A stretch of 13,145 bases of DNA from Sulfurimonadaceae bacterium (GTDB taxonomy: Bacteria > Campylobacterota > Campylobacteria > Campylobacterales > Sulfurimonadaceae). Positions 1 through 9,000 of the stretch are shown in pieces. The position numbers were made by a program. Each line of letters starts with the position of its first letter. The stretch's first letter is position 1. The DNA is taken from contig JBFEXS010000064.1 in assembly GCA_041562555.1 (NCBI GenBank), positions 1-13,145 on the forward strand. The letters are read 5' to 3'.

Positions 1-3000
1 CAAAATGGTGAGCATGTCATGATTGTTGGTGGTGGTGACACCGCTGGTGAGTATGCTTACGGTCTAGTTGAGATGGAAGGTATGGAAGATTGTGTAGTTA
101 CACTTAACTACCGCCAAGCAGAGATCAAAAGAATGAACCCGATCAACACTGAGATGTGTTACAAATACCTAGACAACGGTAAAATTTGCAACAAAATGGG
201 TGTAGACGTTGAGAGCCTTGAAGTATCTCCGGCTGGCAAAATCCAAGTTAACTTTACTGACGGAACTTCAGGTGAATATGACAGAGCTGTTTATGCACTT
301 GGTGGTACAACTCCAAAAGATATCCTTGTTAACTCTGGTGTTCAAACAGGTGAATGGGATGTTCCTGTGTATAATGAAGCAACATTTGAAACAAATGTTG
401 AAGGTCTGTACACTATCGGTGACGTTGTAACAGATCAAGGTTCGATCGCTCTAGCATTCAACCACGCTTCTGACGCTGTTAAAAACATCGCTAAAAACCT
501 AAAATAACTCTTTTATATCATGCTCATTTCGAGCATGATGTCCCCTAAATCTTTCTCACTTTACATTTACTTTATACTGCAAAGCCGGAGATTAGCCAAT
601 CATCTCTTTTTGATGTATCTTCTTGAGATAAAAAGCCTGTTCTTGCTCTTGATGTTCAATCAGTCCCGCGATCTCTTTTTCACTTAACTTCAGACCGTCG
701 GGAACTTTTTCAGAATGCAGCTGAATCGCTGTTTGCTTATAGTTTGGTTCCCCTGATTTCGGACAGAAGGTCGAAGAGGTCAAGGTGTTGATCAGTTGTT
801 CACTAAAATGAAAAGGTACGAAGACATTTCCCGGTGCTACGCTCTGTGTCACCCGTACAACAACATCTTCTATACGTCCCCGTACTGAGGAGAGAGCGAT
901 CCGGTCACCCGAATTCACTTTCAGGCGTTGGGCATCGCTTGGGTTGATATCTACCCAAGCCTCGGGAGCAAGATCATTCAAGATATCGATGCTTTTTGTC
1001 TTGGTTCGTGTATGCCACTGTTCAACCGTACGCCCGGTATTCAAGATAACAGGAAACTCTGCTACTAAAGGCTCTTGTAATGGAACCCACTCTACCGGTA
1101 GAAGATTGGCTTTGGCATCCTTGGTTCGAAAAGGGATCTCTTCCGTATAGAGTCTAGGACTGCCTTCCGGATATTCCTCATTACATGGCCACTGTACGCC
1201 CCCTTTTTCTTCAAGCATCGCATACGTGATACCCGAATAGTCGCAGAACTGTCCCTTCGAGACCTTTTTCCATTCATTGAACGCATCTTCGGGTTTTTTC
1301 CAATTGGGAAAGAGGTTTTCCTGAATATTTTGGAAATACCCCGAGAACTCCACCACGATATCAAAATCACTCTTTGCCTCACCTGCCGGTTCTACAGCTT
1401 TATTCGCCCGGTTACAACGGCGTTCGGAGTTGGTATACACCCCCTCTTTCTCACCCCAGGTTCCCGCTGCAAAGACAACATCTGCCATCTCGGCTGTATC
1501 TGAATAAAAGGCATCCTGAACAACCAGCAGATCCAGTTTATCCAAGGCTGAACGCAACTTTTTCTGATTGACAAAACTGACCAAAGGATTGGTTGCGACG
1601 ATCCAAAGGGCTTTGATCTCTCCCCTGTCAATCGCATCAATGATCTCCGCATATTTGTACCCGCGTTCACGGGGTATCCATTCATAAGGAACCCTGACAA
1701 GATCAGCATACTCTTTGGCTGCTGCCTCATCCCCAAAGTTTCTGTACCCCGGTAAAGACGAAGTAAACCCTGTCTCACGAGTTCCCATAGCATTACATTG
1801 TCCAGTGATCGAGAAAGGTGCTGCACCCGGTCTACCGATTTGACCCGTGATCAGATGAAGATTATTGATGGCAGATACCGTATCTGTCCCCATGTAGGAT
1901 TGATTGACCCCCATTGTCCATGCCGTTAAAGCTGCATCCGCACCGGCAATGGAACGTGCGATCTCATACAGGTCTTTCACTTCAATGCCCGTGATATTTG
2001 CAACCTCCTGAGGAGGATAATCCTGTAGATGTCTTTGCAGTTCAGCAAAACCGTTACAATGCTTTGCAATATACTCAGCATTCTCCCATCCCTGCTCAAG
2101 GATGATATAACACAATCCATTGATCAGTGCCAGATCCGTTCTAGCTTTCACGGGAACATACATATCTGCCATCTGCGCCGTCTTAGACACACGCGGATCG
2201 ATCACGATGATCTTCGGATTTTTCTTGTTTTTGGCCAGATGCAGTTTTAATATCGGATGGTTGTCTGCAATATTTGCCCCGATCAAAGTGATCACATCTG
2301 CCTGCTCAAAGTCCTCATAACATCCCACCGGACCGTCCGATCCTAAGGACTGTTTATATCCCATAACGGCAGATGCCATACAGAGTGTTGTATTCCCGTC
2401 ATAATTGTTGGTGCGTAATCCAAGTTGTACAAACTTGCCCAGAGTATAGAACTCCTCTGTCAGTAATTGACCGGTGGAGATGACCCCGATAGCTTTTGGG
2501 CCATGTTCTTTCGTAATACGTTTGAACTCATTGCTTACCTTTCGGTAAGCTTCATCCCAGGATGCAGATCGGTGTTTCCCCTCATCTTTGATCAGTGGGG
2601 TCAAAATACGGTTGTCTGCGTTAATCATCTGATGCTCGCTCAATCCTTTTGGACAAAGAGTACCGATATTAACATCATGTTTCGGATTTCCTTTGGTGTA
2701 GACAGCTTTGCCATCTTTCACACCGATATACAGGCCACAGCCGACACCGCAATAACCACAGGTGGAAAAGACCCATTTATCCGGTTTTTTCTCATCCGAG
2801 ATGCGGCCAAAGACGGGATCATCTGAAAGCTTGTATTTTGCTTCTTTAATATCTACTCCGAGAAAATCTTTTATCTTATTAATCATCATCTCTCCTTAAT
2901 GTCTCTGTGAACCGACAAAAAATCCACCTGCCATATTCAGGGGAACGACTGTCGCATAAAACAGGAATCTGTCCATAAACTCTGACAGACTCATCATAAG

Positions 3001-6000: not shown

Positions 6001-9000
6001 ACGTATCTAGTCCACCACTCCACCCATGGTATTGAGCCTATCTTCGAACATCTTCTTTCCTTTTAGTCATCGATTCAACATAAGTATTGTGATTAGATCA
6101 CATTTAAGCTAGAATGACTGTATAGAACTATATTTACTCTGGAGTTTTCCATGAAAAAACTACTTATCGTCGATGATAGTGAAACAGTACTGAATATTTT
6201 CAAAGATGCACTCAAAAACGCTCCTGAGATTGAGGCACTGTATGCTGAAAGTTACAATGAGGCGATGCGTATCATACGTTTAAACCCCGATCAGATTCAT
6301 GCGGCCATTCTTGATTACAATCTTCCCGATGCCCCAAAAGGGGAGGTCATCGCACTGGCAAATTCCAATAACATCCCTACCGTCGTTTTGACCGGCAGCC
6401 TGAACAAAGACACCCGGAACATCATCTTAAAAAAGAATGTCATTGATTTTATCCTTAAAAATGATCCGAACAGCATCCGTTCTGCGCTGGATTCAGCCAA
6501 TAAAGCACTTAAAAACTATGATACCACCGTTCTTATTGCCGATGACTCCAAACTGTCGCGTGAACTGATCAAGATGAGTCTGGAAACCATTCATCTCAAC
6601 ATCATGGAAGCCACCAACGGACAAGAAGCACTGGACCTCGTATTAAGCGATGAACATAATATCTCTTTACTCATCACCGATTATGAGATGCCCGAGATAG
6701 ACGGTTTGGACCTTACCTTCACACTTCGGGAGAAGTTTTCAAAAGCCCAGCTTGGTATCATCGCCATGAGCGGTGCTGAGGACGAAGAGACCATCTCTAA
6801 ATTTCTCAAACTCGGGGCGAATGATTTTGTTCATAAACCTCCCGTTCCCAATGAGATTATTACGACGGTCAATGCGAATCTGGAGCTTCTAAGTCTTTTT
6901 GAACAAGTTCAGGAGCTGGCAAACAAGGACTTTTTGACAGGAGCCTATAATCGACGCCATTTCTTTGACACCGGTGAAGCCATATTTTTGAAAGCGAAAC
7001 GTAAAGACCTTCCTTTATCCGTGGCAATGCTGGATATTGATAAATTTAAAATCATCAATGATACCTATGGACATGACGTGGGAGATATAGCGATCAAGGA
7101 GGTAAAGACGATTTTGGAGACAACCCTCAGACGTTCTGACCTGTTTGCACGTTTCGGAGGAGAAGAGTTCTGTATCCTGCTGGAGGGGGTCTCTCTTGAA
7201 GACGTTCAAATGCTCTTCGAAAAGATACGCACCAAGTTTGAAAAGAACACAATCCATACGAAGGACACATCTGTCTCCTATACTGTTTCTATAGGTGTCG
7301 TCTATGGTATGGCAGACTCTCTCGAGGCTTTGGTTAATTTATCCGATGAAGCACTCTATTTTGCAAAAGAACATGGTCGAAACCAGGTCAAGATCAATAC
7401 CCATACTATTTAATAAACAAGGAAAAATGTGTTAAAAGTCCAGTCATCCCAATATATACTCCCAAAGGCGGAAGGTATCCAAGGCGATGATGCCTGCGAT
7501 TTTGCCATTTTAGAAAAATCACTGCTTGTCGCTGTCCTGTGCGACGGTGTCGGCTCTGCTAAGAAGGGAGGTGCTGCAGCCCGTCAAAGTGTCAAGTTCT
7601 TCATTGATCATTTTAAAACCCGGCCAAAAAACTGGGACATCACGCAAAGCCTCACACTCTTTACCCAGCATATCAACCGTCTGCTTTTCAAGGAGTCTAT
7701 GACCCAGTATGAACGTATTGAACTCTTGACGACACTCTGTGTTGCCGTCATCGAAGGAGAAACGCTCTATACGATGAACCTTGGTGATTCGCGTATCTAC
7801 CTCCTGGATAAAGATCAGAACCTTCGTCAACTGAGTGAAGATCATATCATGGATGAAGAGCACCTCTCCCACGTTTTGGTACAAGCCTGCGGACTAAGTG
7901 AACATGTTGAACCGGTCATCACTGCAACAAGTATCGCAAAAGGAGACACGCTTATCCTATGCAGTGATGGTCTGACATCTTTGATCAGTGATGAGGAGAT
8001 CAAAACCGAGATCCTCAAGGGACTCGGAGCAACGACCCTGGTACAAAGTGCCGCCAAAGACCATAAGGACAATGAACGTGATGATATCTCACTGCAGATC
8101 TTTCGTATAGAAGAACTCGATCAGCGACATGCCCTGATGAAACAGGATCTTCTTATCCCTCAAACCCTGAAGAAGGGAGATATCTATGATGAATATGAGC
8201 TTGTCTCATCCATAGTGGAACATGGACGTATCTGGAAGGTACAAAAAGAGGACAAAACCTATGTGATGAAGTTTCCTATGGTACAAGCCATTGATGACCC
8301 CATGGCACTCGAAGAGTTCGTCAAAGAAGCCTGGTATGCCAAACAGATCCACCATAAAGCCTTTGGAGAGGCCTGGGTACCTGAAAATCGTTCCGCACGT
8401 TATTATCTCATGGAACTTGTCGAAGGAATCAACCTTGCCGAATATGTTAAAAACCGCCCTATTACGATCGATTCAGCTATTGCCTTGGCCAAATTCTTGC
8501 ACAAGGCCGAAGCACATCTTTTACATTTTGGGCTGGTACACGGGGATATCAAGCCTGAGAATATCATTGTCTATAAGAAAGAGGGAGAAGTCGGTGTCGA
8601 TTTCAAGATGGTCGATTTTGGATCGGTCGTAGAGGTATTCGAAGTCAATTCCAGAGCAGGTACACCCTCTTTTCTCGCTCCGGAACGTTTCAATGGCAAT
8701 GCCATCAATGAATCGACCGAAATCTTCTCTATCGGAGTCACACTCTATTGGGCCTTGACCGGTAAATACCCCTATGGGGAGATCGAGCCCTTTCAGACCC
8801 CAAGCTTTAAGACGGCAAAACGACCCAGCCTGTATAATAAAAACATCCCTCATTGGTTTGAATCAATCATCATGCGATCCATAGAAATCGATGTAGAACA
8901 CCGCTATAGCCACTATTCTGAATTCTTTTATGAGCTGAAATCACCAGAGAAGGTCAAACCCTATTATGAGAAAGACTCCTCTTTCATCGAGCGCGAACCT

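Follow-up and report, generated by a model that had tools for sequence, protein, structure and literature searches.

Probable menaquinol wiring of an assimilatory-type nitrate reductase through a fused, inward-facing iron-sulfur/anchor protein in a Sulfurimonadaceae bacterium

In the 13,145 nucleotides of Sulfurimonadaceae DNA analysed here (the window), a NasA-like molybdoenzyme (P0001) lies beside a protein in which an iron-sulfur domain is fused to a membrane anchor (P0002), and the two probably constitute a cytoplasm-facing menaquinol:nitrate oxidoreductase serving nitrate assimilation. A quinol-driven assimilatory nitrate reductase had been proposed in an earlier note, and the tests agree with that proposal. 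The complex, its donor, its direction of electron flow and its role are what we infer from the absence of Tat signals, an inverted charge bias, the retention of DmsC/SoeC quinone-site residues and a nitrate-reductase-type Cys-Met motif, together with co-occurrence and adjacency of the genes, their NirA, NarK and Amt-PII neighbours and a palindrome common to nitrogen-uptake promoters.

The locus

The features of relevance are the following.

592..2889, minus strand: NasA-like catalytic subunit (P0001), 765 aa from the first ATG
2890..2895, minus strand: intergenic GGAGAG, six bases (Shine-Dalgarno), read from the sequence
2896..4464, minus strand: fused electron-transfer and anchor protein (P0002), 522 aa
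2956..3765, minus strand: DmsC-family membrane domain of P0002, residues 234-503, PF04976 match
3526..3603, minus strand: putative quinol site of P0002 (S288, H291, S308, S311, E313), end of TM2 and TM2-TM3 loop
3934..4356, minus strand: iron-sulfur domain of P0002, residues 37-177, 16 cysteines in four Cys groups
4537..4553, no strand: palindrome TGATTACTTTTTAATCA, candidate nitrogen-regulon operator, in the divergent promoter region
4730..6010, plus strand: NarK-family MFS nitrate/nitrite transporter (P0003), 426 aa, divergent from the fused gene
7429..9075, plus strand: PP2C phosphatase fused to a Ser/Thr kinase (Pfam PP2C_2 and Pkinase)

The genes and coordinates that the earlier note gave for 592-6010 are as it had them, including the divergent NarK-type MFS gene at 4730-6010 on the plus strand, and its spacing of 10 nt between the fused gene (its g01608) and nasA (its g01607) was essentially right, the distance from the fused-gene stop being 6 nt to the first nasA ATG or 9 nt to the second. 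Which of these is used? The second, at 2886, gives a 764 aa product and is better placed behind the GGAGAG Shine-Dalgarno; it is the likely true start. From the stop of the fused gene to the nasA start the junction reads TAA-GGAGAG-ATGATG, and the presence of just this six-base element between the genes indicates, at the level of sequence, that translation of the two is coupled.

The fused protein

By sequence and structural model, P0002 is an N-terminal DmsB-like domain for four [4Fe-4S] clusters followed by an eight-helix DmsC-like quinol anchor. Pfam places Fer4_11 at 84-177 (4.4e-23) and DmsC at 234-503 (6.8e-22, 78.6 bits, cut-off 22.3), and the score with TIGR02951, DMSO_dmsB, is 151 bits, below the cut-off of 214. 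The AlphaFold2 model (pLDDT 82, pTM 0.82) has eight TM helices; in Foldseek searches with it the N-terminal half resembles ArrB, FdnH and PsrB (E about 1e-9), and the C-terminal half PsrC (2vpw_C, E 1.7e-3) and ActC. None of the cluster cysteines (C46/49/52/56, C91/94/99/103, C124/127/130/134 and C151/154/166/170) varies across 21 diverse homologues. Within the anchor, S288, H291, S308, S311 and E313 are identical in alignment to Ser62, His65, Ser82, Ser85 and Glu87 of E. coli DmsC, and across 132 family representatives H291 is retained in every one, E313 and S308 in 131 each and S311 in 129. PMC8076601 lists these positions among those of the quinone site in DmsC and in SoeC; the same source states that replacement of DmsC His65 blocks quinol oxidation. 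Menaquinone synthesis genes of MqnA/MqnD type occur in the genome, and P0002 is its sole DmsC-family gene product.

The catalytic subunit

From its sequence, P0001 would be a cytoplasmic Mo-bisPGD nitrate reductase. Its Pfam domains, Molybdop_Fe4S4 (38-90), Molybdopterin (94-517) and Molydop_binding (615-721), are, like those of P0002, the ones claimed before. It carries the FS0 four-Cys motif and the Mo-ligand motif TTLCMASAV, and a C-terminal 2Fe-2S domain is absent from it. The closest solved relative is Desulfovibrio desulfuricans NapA (1.1e-131). That LCMASAV aligns with the motif of this NapA and not with formate dehydrogenase, which has ICHGPSV at the position, together with the adjoining NarK, points to nitrate as substrate. 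C44, C47, C51, C79, C170, M171, K81 and R371 are invariant in 21 NasA orthologues.

Family models speak less plainly. NCBIfam scores for P0001 are 587 bits for Fdh-alpha, 497 for NasC, 479 for NasA_Halo and 408 for NapA, all below cut-offs, and two aspects count against the reading favoured here: the top raw score is that of a formate-dehydrogenase model (587 versus 497 bits), and P0001 passes the curated cut-off of no NCBIfam nitrate-reductase equivalog. P0001 begins with an extension of ~33 residues that is conserved in its own NasA clade and missing from D. desulfuricans NapA, the best-matching formate dehydrogenase (7bkb) and most matches among classical plasmid-borne Nas proteins; the latter share 35-38% identity with P0001, and 22 of the 25 matches begin at query residue 20 or beyond.

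On which side of the membrane?

The earlier note had found Tat signals missing from both proteins, and this holds for them and for their orthologues, an RR motif or hydrophobic N-region being present in none of 19 NasA and none of 20 fused proteins. Within this genome, NapA (MSLDRRAFLK...) and a protein resembling NapG do carry both. A loose RR pattern matched one of 70 diverse representatives, with no hydrophobic stretch behind it. Lys plus Arg residues number 15 on the FeS side of the P0002 anchor versus 2 on the other side; they are more numerous on the FeS side in 132/132 family representatives (median 16 versus 2), and the bias is reversed in the E. coli anchors DmsC (3 versus 8) and YnfH (3 versus 9). 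From the charge bias and the missing export signals, and from these only, the FeS domain and quinol-site loops are predicted to be cytoplasmic and the anchor inverted (N-in).

Distribution and partnership of the two genes

Full-length fused protein occurs in 36 of 400 other genomes of the phylum, in 7 families at 53-70% identity, in line with the 14 of 100 Campylobacterota genomes counted earlier. Both genes are present in 35 of the 400, the fused gene without NasA in one, where it lies 970 nt from a contig end, NasA without the fused gene in none, and neither in 364. Among 29 loci taken with 1.5 kb flanks, NasA is at most 400 nt downstream of the fused gene in 21 and 1.2-1.4 kb off in 3, so that the 1.4 kb gap with an unrelated gene between, described earlier for two of two loci, is a minority arrangement; in the other 5 NasA is outside the flank, and all five have it elsewhere in the genome. 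Counted against the main reading are a separation of ~50 kb in one genome (G015) and location on different contigs in three (G057, G390 and G341). Of 53 loci from outside Campylobacterota, 52 have a NasA-like gene (48-58% identity) directly after the fused gene; the gap is estimated at -4 nt in the median, and in 49 of those 52 the two overlap or nearly touch. Acidobacteriota, too, commonly carry the module, beside NirA-like and NarK genes. This synteny, and analogy with the solved PsrAB, FdnGH and ArrAB pairs, suggests that NasA binds the FeS domain of the fused protein.

Nitrogen-assimilation context

P0003 is an MFS_1 protein (Pfam) scoring 236 bits with the NarK family model TIGR00886, below the cut-off of 311. 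Over 21 loci the neighbours include a NarK orthologue in 15, a NirA-like gene in 14 and Amt/PII in 6; an orthologue of the PP2C-kinase gene, a conserved neighbour of narK, is in 16. As the earlier note had it, the genome has both a nitrite reductase and a periplasmic Nap: a NIR_SIR gene, truncated by the contig end, is on C72, and a 942-aa NapA is encoded on C3. That nirA is on a contig other than that of the operon counts against the main reading.

The palindrome TGATTACTTTTTAATCA, upstream of the fused gene by 73 nt and of narK by 193 nt, is matched once in the window versus 0.07 expected, and genome-wide there are 11 sites versus 3 for a control pattern. Sites with an AT spacer precede amt-glnK-amt and an nrtA-like gene, the form TGATT-N7-AATCA being common to these promoters and that of the locus, and 8 of the 21 loci have the exact palindrome ahead of the fused gene, narK, nirA or amt. 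It is a candidate nitrogen-regulon operator.

Comparison with known systems

How does this compare with characterised enzymes? The soluble assimilatory reductases (cyanobacterial NarB, Bacillus subtilis NasC, Klebsiella/Paracoccus NasA/NasC, haloarchaeal NasA) are likewise cytoplasmic, with FS0 and a Cys-ligated Mo-bisPGD, and their genes cluster with those for nitrite reductase and nitrate transport. However, they are without a membrane anchor, receiving electrons from ferredoxin, flavodoxin or, via NasB/NirB-type partners, NAD(P)H, and matches to the plasmid-borne ones mostly leave the first ~20-40 residues of P0001 uncovered. NarGHI is alike by functional analogy only, as a membrane-bound quinol-oxidising nitrate reductase with its active site in the cytoplasm. 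NarG is of another clade (38.6 bits for P0001, NCBIfam), and NarI is a di-heme b anchor at which quinol is oxidised at the outer face in a redox loop, whereas the P0002 anchor has no heme and a quinol site predicted at the inner face. With E. coli DmsABC and YnfFGH, of the DMSO/selenate reductase family, the likeness is in the DmsB-like FeS domain and an anchor belonging to Pfam DmsC (26% identity to E. coli DmsC over 152 residues, E 6e-8). Those enzymes, though, are Tat-exported and periplasm-facing with the opposite Lys plus Arg bias, have separate B and C subunits, and their catalytic subunit is of another clade (dmsA_ynfE, 164 bits for P0001 in NCBIfam, cut-off 778).

SoeABC of Allochromatium vinosum and Aquifex aeolicus is nearer in design: an NrfD/DmsC-like anchor with eight helices and no heme, SoeC, is combined with a Mo-bisPGD catalytic subunit and an FeS subunit of four clusters. 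For SoeC, His65, Glu87, Ser82 and Ser85 are listed as quinone-site residues, and the peripheral subunits are hypothesised to face the cytoplasm (N side), the anchor being inverted (PMC8076601). By description it is set apart by its three separate polypeptides and by oxidising sulfite and reducing quinone; P0002 unites the B and C parts in a single chain, its catalytic partner P0001 is of nitrate-reductase type and flow should be from quinol to substrate. The orientation in the earlier claim of an inward-facing DmsABC-type architecture agrees with the charge bias and lack of Tat signals; its novelty is overstated, since SoeABC had already been read as N-side-facing. A three-gene Thiovulum operon, 'nrfD-narB-ttrB', likewise from Campylobacterota, brings together a NarB-type gene, an FeS subunit and an anchor of NrfD type. 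However, FeS and anchor are reported as separate genes, and in the relevant part of that paper nrfD is interpreted as polysulfide reductase and no link to nitrate assimilation is proposed (PMC9938260). Our literature search found no description of such nitrate-reductase wiring.

Other ways to read the pair

Could the enzyme be respiratory or dual-purpose, a cytoplasm-facing quinol:nitrate oxidoreductase like NarGHI, with the anchor releasing or pumping protons outward and NarK a nitrate/nitrite exchanger? The drop from menaquinol to nitrate, about 0.5 V, is large and favours this, as do conserved intrahelical charged residues (R456, R499 and E495-type positions) and, from other systems, the ion conduction proposed for NrfD-like subunits and the electrogenic nature of QrcABCD (PMC6303296, PMC8076601). 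We consider it unlikely, as the conserved neighbours (NirA, Amt, PII) are genes of assimilation, the module common in Acidobacteriota likewise lies next to NirA-like and NarK genes, the palindrome is common to the locus promoter, amt-glnK and nrtA-like genes, and respiration is already served by a Nap system in this genome. NasA might otherwise be an ordinary ferredoxin- or flavodoxin-dependent enzyme of NarB type, with the fused protein an accessory, whether tether or FeS-quinone valve, and not the obligatory donor. Its three-domain build is that of NarB/NasC-type enzymes, the two genes are unlinked in some genomes, and reduced ferredoxin is to be expected in these rTCA autotrophs. Yet no genome of the 400 has NasA on its own, near-contact of the genes is the rule in other phyla (49/52), quinone-site residues (129-132 of 132) and all 16 cluster cysteines are kept, and NasA has the conserved extension left uncovered by 22 of 25 classical plasmid-borne matches, which makes that role quite improbable.

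The substrate could, lastly, be another oxyanion such as chlorate, selenate or a sulfur oxyanion, or the enzyme could run in the oxidising direction and reduce quinone, as SoeABC does with sulfite. Nitrate is deduced from 35-52% identity to nitrate reductases with every curated NCBIfam cut-off missed, but the active-site motif matches that of NapA, and NarK and NirA are conserved neighbours across many phyla. Oxidation of nitrite to nitrate is thermodynamically unable to reduce menaquinone. Even with SoeABC as a precedent for the same inverted design being able to feed the quinone pool (PMC8076601), such a substrate or direction seems very improbable.

A proposed electron path

Returning to the menaquinol:nitrate oxidoreductase, NasA and the fused protein would most likely be a single membrane-bound enzyme at the inner face of the cytoplasmic membrane. 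Menaquinol would dock where the first four-helix bundle of the anchor ends on the cytoplasmic side, at the DmsC-type site (H291/E313), and its two electrons would run through the four [4Fe-4S] clusters that P0002 itself carries in its N-terminal domain to FS0 of NasA and on to the Mo-bisPGD centre with its Cys ligand. There, nitrate imported by NarK would be reduced to nitrite, which would pass to siroheme NirA, probably ferredoxin-fed, and so to glutamine synthesis. With a nitrate-assimilation enzyme encoded beside a fusion of FeS wire and inward quinol anchor, the membrane quinone pool is the probable source of the electrons with which this bacterium reduces nitrate, rather than ferredoxin or NADH.

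The gene pair and its surroundings

In a metagenome-assembled, Sulfurimonas-like genome of 137 contigs and about 89% completeness, whose contig C64 is the window, an earlier note had described, within positions 592-6010, a NasA-like molybdoenzyme gene, a fused iron-sulfur and membrane-anchor gene and, divergent to them, a nitrate transporter gene. Gene coordinates together with Pfam and NCBIfam confirm this arrangement, and both model collections reproduce the domain assignments made there. The features are:

592-2889, minus strand: P0001, NasA-like molybdoenzyme, 765 aa (gene call)
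2896-4464, minus strand: P0002, fused protein, 522 aa (gene call, a single frame without stops)
4730-6010, plus strand: P0003, MFS transporter, 426 aa, divergent to P0002

The junction of the first two reads TAA-GGAGAG-ATGATG, the stop codon of P0002 abutting the Shine-Dalgarno sequence of P0001, and the length of 764 aa previously given for the molybdoenzyme is that of translation from its second ATG. P0003 matches the NarK family model of NCBIfam at a score below the cut-off. Downstream of narK, all on the plus strand and none conserved among related loci, are genes for a double-receiver GGDEF protein (6151-7413), a 437-aa protein with no Pfam match (9177-10490) and a trypsin-like protease (10480-11583). 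Elsewhere in the genome there is a third molybdoenzyme gene (G000:C100:1-1702, minus strand) whose product has its FS0 motif at the extreme N-terminus and no Tat signal, and whose C-terminus is lost at the contig end.

The fused iron-sulfur and anchor protein

P0002 combines a Fer4_11 domain (residues 84-177) with a DmsC domain (234-503; PF04976, 78.6 bits against a cut-off of 22.3). Its N-terminal half, which matches FdnH, PsrB and ArrB and scores 151 bits with TIGR02951, under the cut-off of 214, has four complete cysteine groups, and 16/16 of the cysteines are invariant among 21 homologues of 30-53% identity. The C-terminal half is 26% identical to Escherichia coli DmsC over 152 residues (E 6e-8). 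A confident AlphaFold2 model (pLDDT 82, pTM 0.82) has eight transmembrane helices, and with Foldseek its first half finds ArrB, FdnH and PsrB (E about 1e-9) and its second half PsrC of Thermus polysulfide reductase (E 1.7e-3) as well as ActC. Full-length fused homologues amount to hundreds of 50% clusters; a search for close relatives in which the anchor domain stands unfused gave mainly fused-gene fragments on short contigs, with no named SoeC among them.

Does the anchor retain what a quinol-oxidizing site needs? The passages of a review on these anchors (PMC8076601) give the quinone-site residues of E. coli DmsC as Ser62, His65, Ser82 and Glu87, and those of Aquifex SoeC as His65, Glu87, Ser82 and Ser85, and state that replacement of DmsC His65 blocks quinol oxidation. 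All of these DmsC and SoeC positions are invariant in the P0002 alignment and, among 132 representatives of the family, the equivalent of His65 (H291 of P0002) is kept in 132, that of Glu87 (E313) in 131, that of Ser82 (S308) in 131 and that of Ser85 (S311) in 129.

Which side of the membrane?

A cluster-bearing domain that lacks a Tat signal stays in the cytoplasm. Neither an RR motif nor a hydrophobic N-terminal stretch was found in any of 19 NasA orthologues or 20 fused orthologues, so that the absence of Tat signals, claimed before for P0001 and P0002, holds for their orthologues too. In the same genome, motif and stretch are both present in NapA (MSLDRRAFLK...) and in a NapG-like protein. 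Among 70 diverse representatives a loose RR pattern occurs once, with no hydrophobic stretch behind it.

The charge of the loops bears on the same point. With loops set on an alignment that included E. coli DmsC and YnfH, and with which the AlphaFold2 helices agreed, P0002 has 15 Lys+Arg on the side of the iron-sulfur domain and 2 on the opposite side, and the sign is the same in 132/132 representatives (medians 16 vs 2). The E. coli anchors have the reversed bias, 3 on the iron-sulfur side against 8 for DmsC and 3 against 9 for YnfH, which fits the export of their partners. As each helix has its single homologous counterpart in the E. coli anchors and the charge bias is opposite, the anchor of P0002 is to be taken as inverted, and its predicted quinol site is at the cytoplasmic face, beside the iron-sulfur domain.

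The catalytic subunit

P0001 consists of Molybdop_Fe4S4, Molybdopterin and Molydop_binding domains (Pfam), and a C-terminal 2Fe-2S domain is absent from it. Its NCBIfam scores are 587 bits for Fdh-alpha, 497 for NasC (cut-off 1100), 479 for haloarchaeal NasA (NasA_Halo, cut-off 1000) and 408 for NapA; as it remains under every curated cut-off, it belongs to a separate clade rather than being an equivalog of characterised enzymes. Among solved structures P0001 comes closest to the monomeric NapA of Desulfovibrio desulfuricans (1.1e-131), with whose 'PRLCMASAV' the molybdenum-ligand motif of P0001, 'TTLCMASAV', aligns; at this position a formate dehydrogenase chain, 7bkb_D, has 'ARICHGPSV'. The Cys-Met motif of P0001 is thus of the nitrate-reductase type, as against the Cys/Sec-His of formate dehydrogenases. 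Across 21 orthologues, which come from several phyla, the FS0 cysteines C44, C47, C51 and C79 never vary, nor do C170, M171, K81 and R371. That P0001 is itself a formate dehydrogenase, the model for which (TIGR01591) gives the top raw score, was rejected on the active-site motif and the gene context.

Identity to the classical plasmid-borne nitrate reductases is only 35-38%, and in 22 of the 25 that were listed the match starts at P0001 residue 20 at least. Because the first 33 or so residues are kept within the clade and mostly uncovered by these matches, they constitute a clade-specific extension. Residues 1-37, with the pattern [KR]-x-x-[FL]-[LI]-G-[LF]-D...Y...D...G, are conserved in the anchor-linked NasA clade (loci L063-L140) and are uncovered by D. 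desulfuricans NapA, by 7bkb, the formate dehydrogenase that matches best, and by most plasmid-borne Nas. With an acidobacterial copy that reads RLRRALGMD, the segment loosely resembles a twin-arginine motif that lacks its hydrophobic part; it could be the vestige of a Tat signal, or else an arm for docking. An 826-aa actinobacterial 'nitrate reductase' on the Curtobacterium plasmid NZ_CP126274.1 (292568-297110) matches from P0001 residue 1. Upstream of it is a gene for a 559-aa 'molybdopterin-dependent oxidoreductase' that was considered as a relative of the fused anchor; comparison found it unrelated, and it may be yet another type of partner.

Co-occurrence, distribution and neighbours

In one sample of 400 Campylobacterota genomes the full-length fused gene is present in 36 and a NasA orthologue (E ≤ 1e-200) in 35; both occur in 35 and NasA alone in 0, while in the sole genome with the fused gene alone a contig ends 970 nt away on the downstream side. 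Of 29 loci taken with flanks of 1.5 kb, 24 have NasA downstream of the fused gene, 21 of them within 400 nt and 3 at 1.2-1.4 kb, and the five remaining genomes have it elsewhere. The gap of 1.4 kb with an opposite-strand gene that the earlier note had reported does exist in two of the three wider-spaced cases (G010 and G041), but it is not the usual layout, given the 21/29 within 400 nt. The gene lying between the pair in these two genomes (L035:10849-12114, minus strand, and also in L039) encodes a 421-aa protein of no Pfam family.

A scan of species-representative genomes yielded 80 loci, 53 of them outside Campylobacterota. These 53 are mostly from Acidobacteriota, with Turneriella, Omnitrophota, Latescibacterota, Ilumatobacter/Acidimicrobiales, Dormiibacterota and more among the other labels, and in 52 of them a NasA-like gene (48-58% identity) comes directly after the fused gene, the estimated gap having a median of -4 nt; in the one exception the contig ends there. 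A further subgroup is found in Planctomycetota (Bremerella), and the gene pair is present in Campylobacterota, Acidobacteriota, Planctomycetota, Actinomycetota and other phyla. The two-gene module is real and conserved.

What else keeps company with the pair? In 21 Campylobacterota loci of 13-20 kb, the neighbours include a 640-aa NIR_SIR (siroheme) nitrite reductase, NirA, in 14, NarK in 15, a PP2C-kinase fusion in 16 and Amt-PII-Amt in 6. In the source genome nirA is at the edge of another contig and narK adjoins the pair in the window. The PP2C-Ser/Thr kinase fusion (P0005; 7429-9075, plus strand), which has a hydrophobic C-terminal tail and is found beside narK in those 16 loci, gave no tblastn match in the 53 loci of other phyla apart from one weak one; its phosphorylation activity may serve to regulate the uptake of nitrate. 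At four related loci (L037:5649-9157, also L039, L041 and L052) a four-gene set lies between narK and the fused gene. One of its products is a 562-aa protein of the heme-copper-oxidase family (Pfam COX1), and the other three are small and match nothing in Pfam; the set may encode an NO reductase guarding against nitrite-derived NO. Another locus (L045, G275:C1:1613500-1633499) has, upstream of the fused gene, a second NasA-like molybdoenzyme of 664 aa without the N-terminal extension, and an NrtABC-type ABC transporter in place of NarK.

A palindrome in the divergent promoter region

Between the fused gene and narK lies a 17-bp palindrome of the form TGATT-N7-AATCA, for which 0.07 occurrences are expected in the window. 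Sites of this form number 11 in the genome, where a control pattern occurs 3 times, and those with AT-rich spacers are:

window 4537-4553: TGATTACTTTTTAATCA, divergent promoter region of the fused gene and narK
G000:C47:11219: amt-glnK-amt, 83 nt before it
G000:C33:15756 and G000:C33:17252: an nrtA-like gene and its neighbour (433 aa, no Pfam family), 65 and 37 nt before them

In 8 of the 21 loci an exact copy of the palindrome stands ahead of the fused gene, narK, nirA or amt. Taken together, these findings support shared nitrogen-related control as the putative role of the site.

Proposed mechanism and its rivals

The reading that we consider most likely, and on balance probable, is of a cytoplasm-facing menaquinol:nitrate oxidoreductase that serves assimilation. 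Menaquinol, for whose synthesis the genome has the MqnA and MqnD genes, would be oxidized at H291/E313 on the inner face, and electrons would pass through the four clusters of P0002 to FS0 and on to the molybdenum centre of NasA, which we infer to bind the iron-sulfur domain; quinol as donor and this direction of flow are likewise the presumed ones. Nitrate imported by NarK would be reduced to nitrite at NasA, and nitrite to ammonium by NirA. As the donor site would be on the same face as the acceptor site, the reaction would be electroneutral unless the anchor conducts protons outward. Low-potential reductant would be spared in a sulfur or hydrogen oxidizer.

Could P0001 instead be an ordinary ferredoxin-dependent NasA, to which the fused protein is an accessory? 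The strict co-occurrence of the two genes and the invariant quinone site speak against this, making it improbable, and the gene context argues for quinol over a soluble donor, be it ferredoxin, flavodoxin or NAD(P)H. That the same complex is respiratory, or serves both ends and conserves energy, is quite unlikely. That the enzyme has another substrate, or runs in reverse as in Soe, is very improbable. SoeA oxidizes sulfite and reduces quinone; the nearest relatives of P0001 are nitrate reductases and its context is that of nitrate assimilation.

The menaquinol-fed assimilatory reading can also be extended, to a third, quinol-dependent and membrane-bound class of Nas spread over many phyla, with a proton-exporting anchor and an N-terminus of NasA that is a Tat vestige. 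Quinol or pumped protons would then be sent outside and nitrate assimilation would build proton-motive force, and the vestige, [KR]-x-x-[FL]-[LI]-G-[LF]-D, would point to an ancestral Nap/Dms-like complex of the periplasm that was flipped inside. All of this holding jointly is unlikely.

Comparison with known systems

With the Nas/NarB type P0001 shares the FS0 and Mo-bisPGD domains, the Cys-Met ligand, the lack of a Tat signal and the linkage to NirA and NarK, but it does not match the curated equivalog scores of NasC and haloarchaeal NasA. P0002 in turn shares with the DmsABC type a four-cluster iron-sulfur part, a heme-less anchor of the DmsC family and the equivalents of His65 and Glu87. 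However, DmsABC is exported by Tat, has its A and B subunits in the periplasm and the N-terminus of its anchor outside, whereas the module here is without Tat signals and of opposite Lys+Arg bias; further, B and C are separate polypeptides there and one 522-aa chain here. NarGHI, with a NarG-type subunit and di-heme NarI, is more distant, as P0001 scores 38.6 bits with the narG model against a cut-off of 1084 and the anchor is of the DmsC family.

The closest known design is SoeABC, for which the relevant passages of the review (PMC8076601) put forward, as a hypothesis, peripheral subunits on the N side and an inverted NrfD/DmsC-like anchor. Of the inward-facing DmsABC-type architecture proposed earlier, the orientation is supported by charge bias and missing Tat signals, and the novelty falls, since such an architecture is not new in kind. 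The likeness of the present anchor to SoeC is taken from its description in the literature. The NrfD-containing complexes listed in that review include no nitrate reductase, and none is named in the further NrfD-family literature examined. Where a Thiovulum genome report treats its nrfD-narB-ttrB operon, nrfD is read as polysulfide reductase (PMC9938260); this operon is the one mention of such a pairing that the search of the literature turned up. A comparison of Sulfurimonas lists only 'nasAB' and nirA (PMC7952632). The pertinent parts of PMC4013037, bioRxiv 10.1101/2020.10.19.345819, PMC13332983 and PMC10732223 deal with other complexes: Klebsiella-type Nas, NasA alone, actinobacterial Fdh with NrfD and ACIII-like clusters. 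In open-access full texts no description was found of the inverted design wired to a Nas-type nitrate reductase, of a fusion of the B and C parts, or of an assimilatory nitrate reductase linked to quinol or to DmsC/NrfD. The module is here classed as a Nas-type reductase on an inverted anchor of the SoeBC/DmsBC type, a coherent case from computation.

Implications

Textbook assimilatory nitrate reductases draw their electrons from ferredoxin, flavodoxin or NAD(P)H. An enzyme of this kind that is bound to the membrane and fed by quinol would, if true, represent a further donor class, as well as a second and reductive example of the inverted NrfD/DmsC design that has so far been proposed only for SoeABC. 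The fused protein is currently annotated as a DMSO reductase anchor, a formate dehydrogenase iron-sulfur subunit or a polysulfide reductase, which misleads metabolic reconstructions. Cultured carriers of the gene pair exist. As sulfur- and hydrogen-oxidizing chemolithoautotrophs fill their quinone pool directly and pay energy for low-potential reductant, the proposal, if true, would change the energy accounting of their nitrate assimilation.
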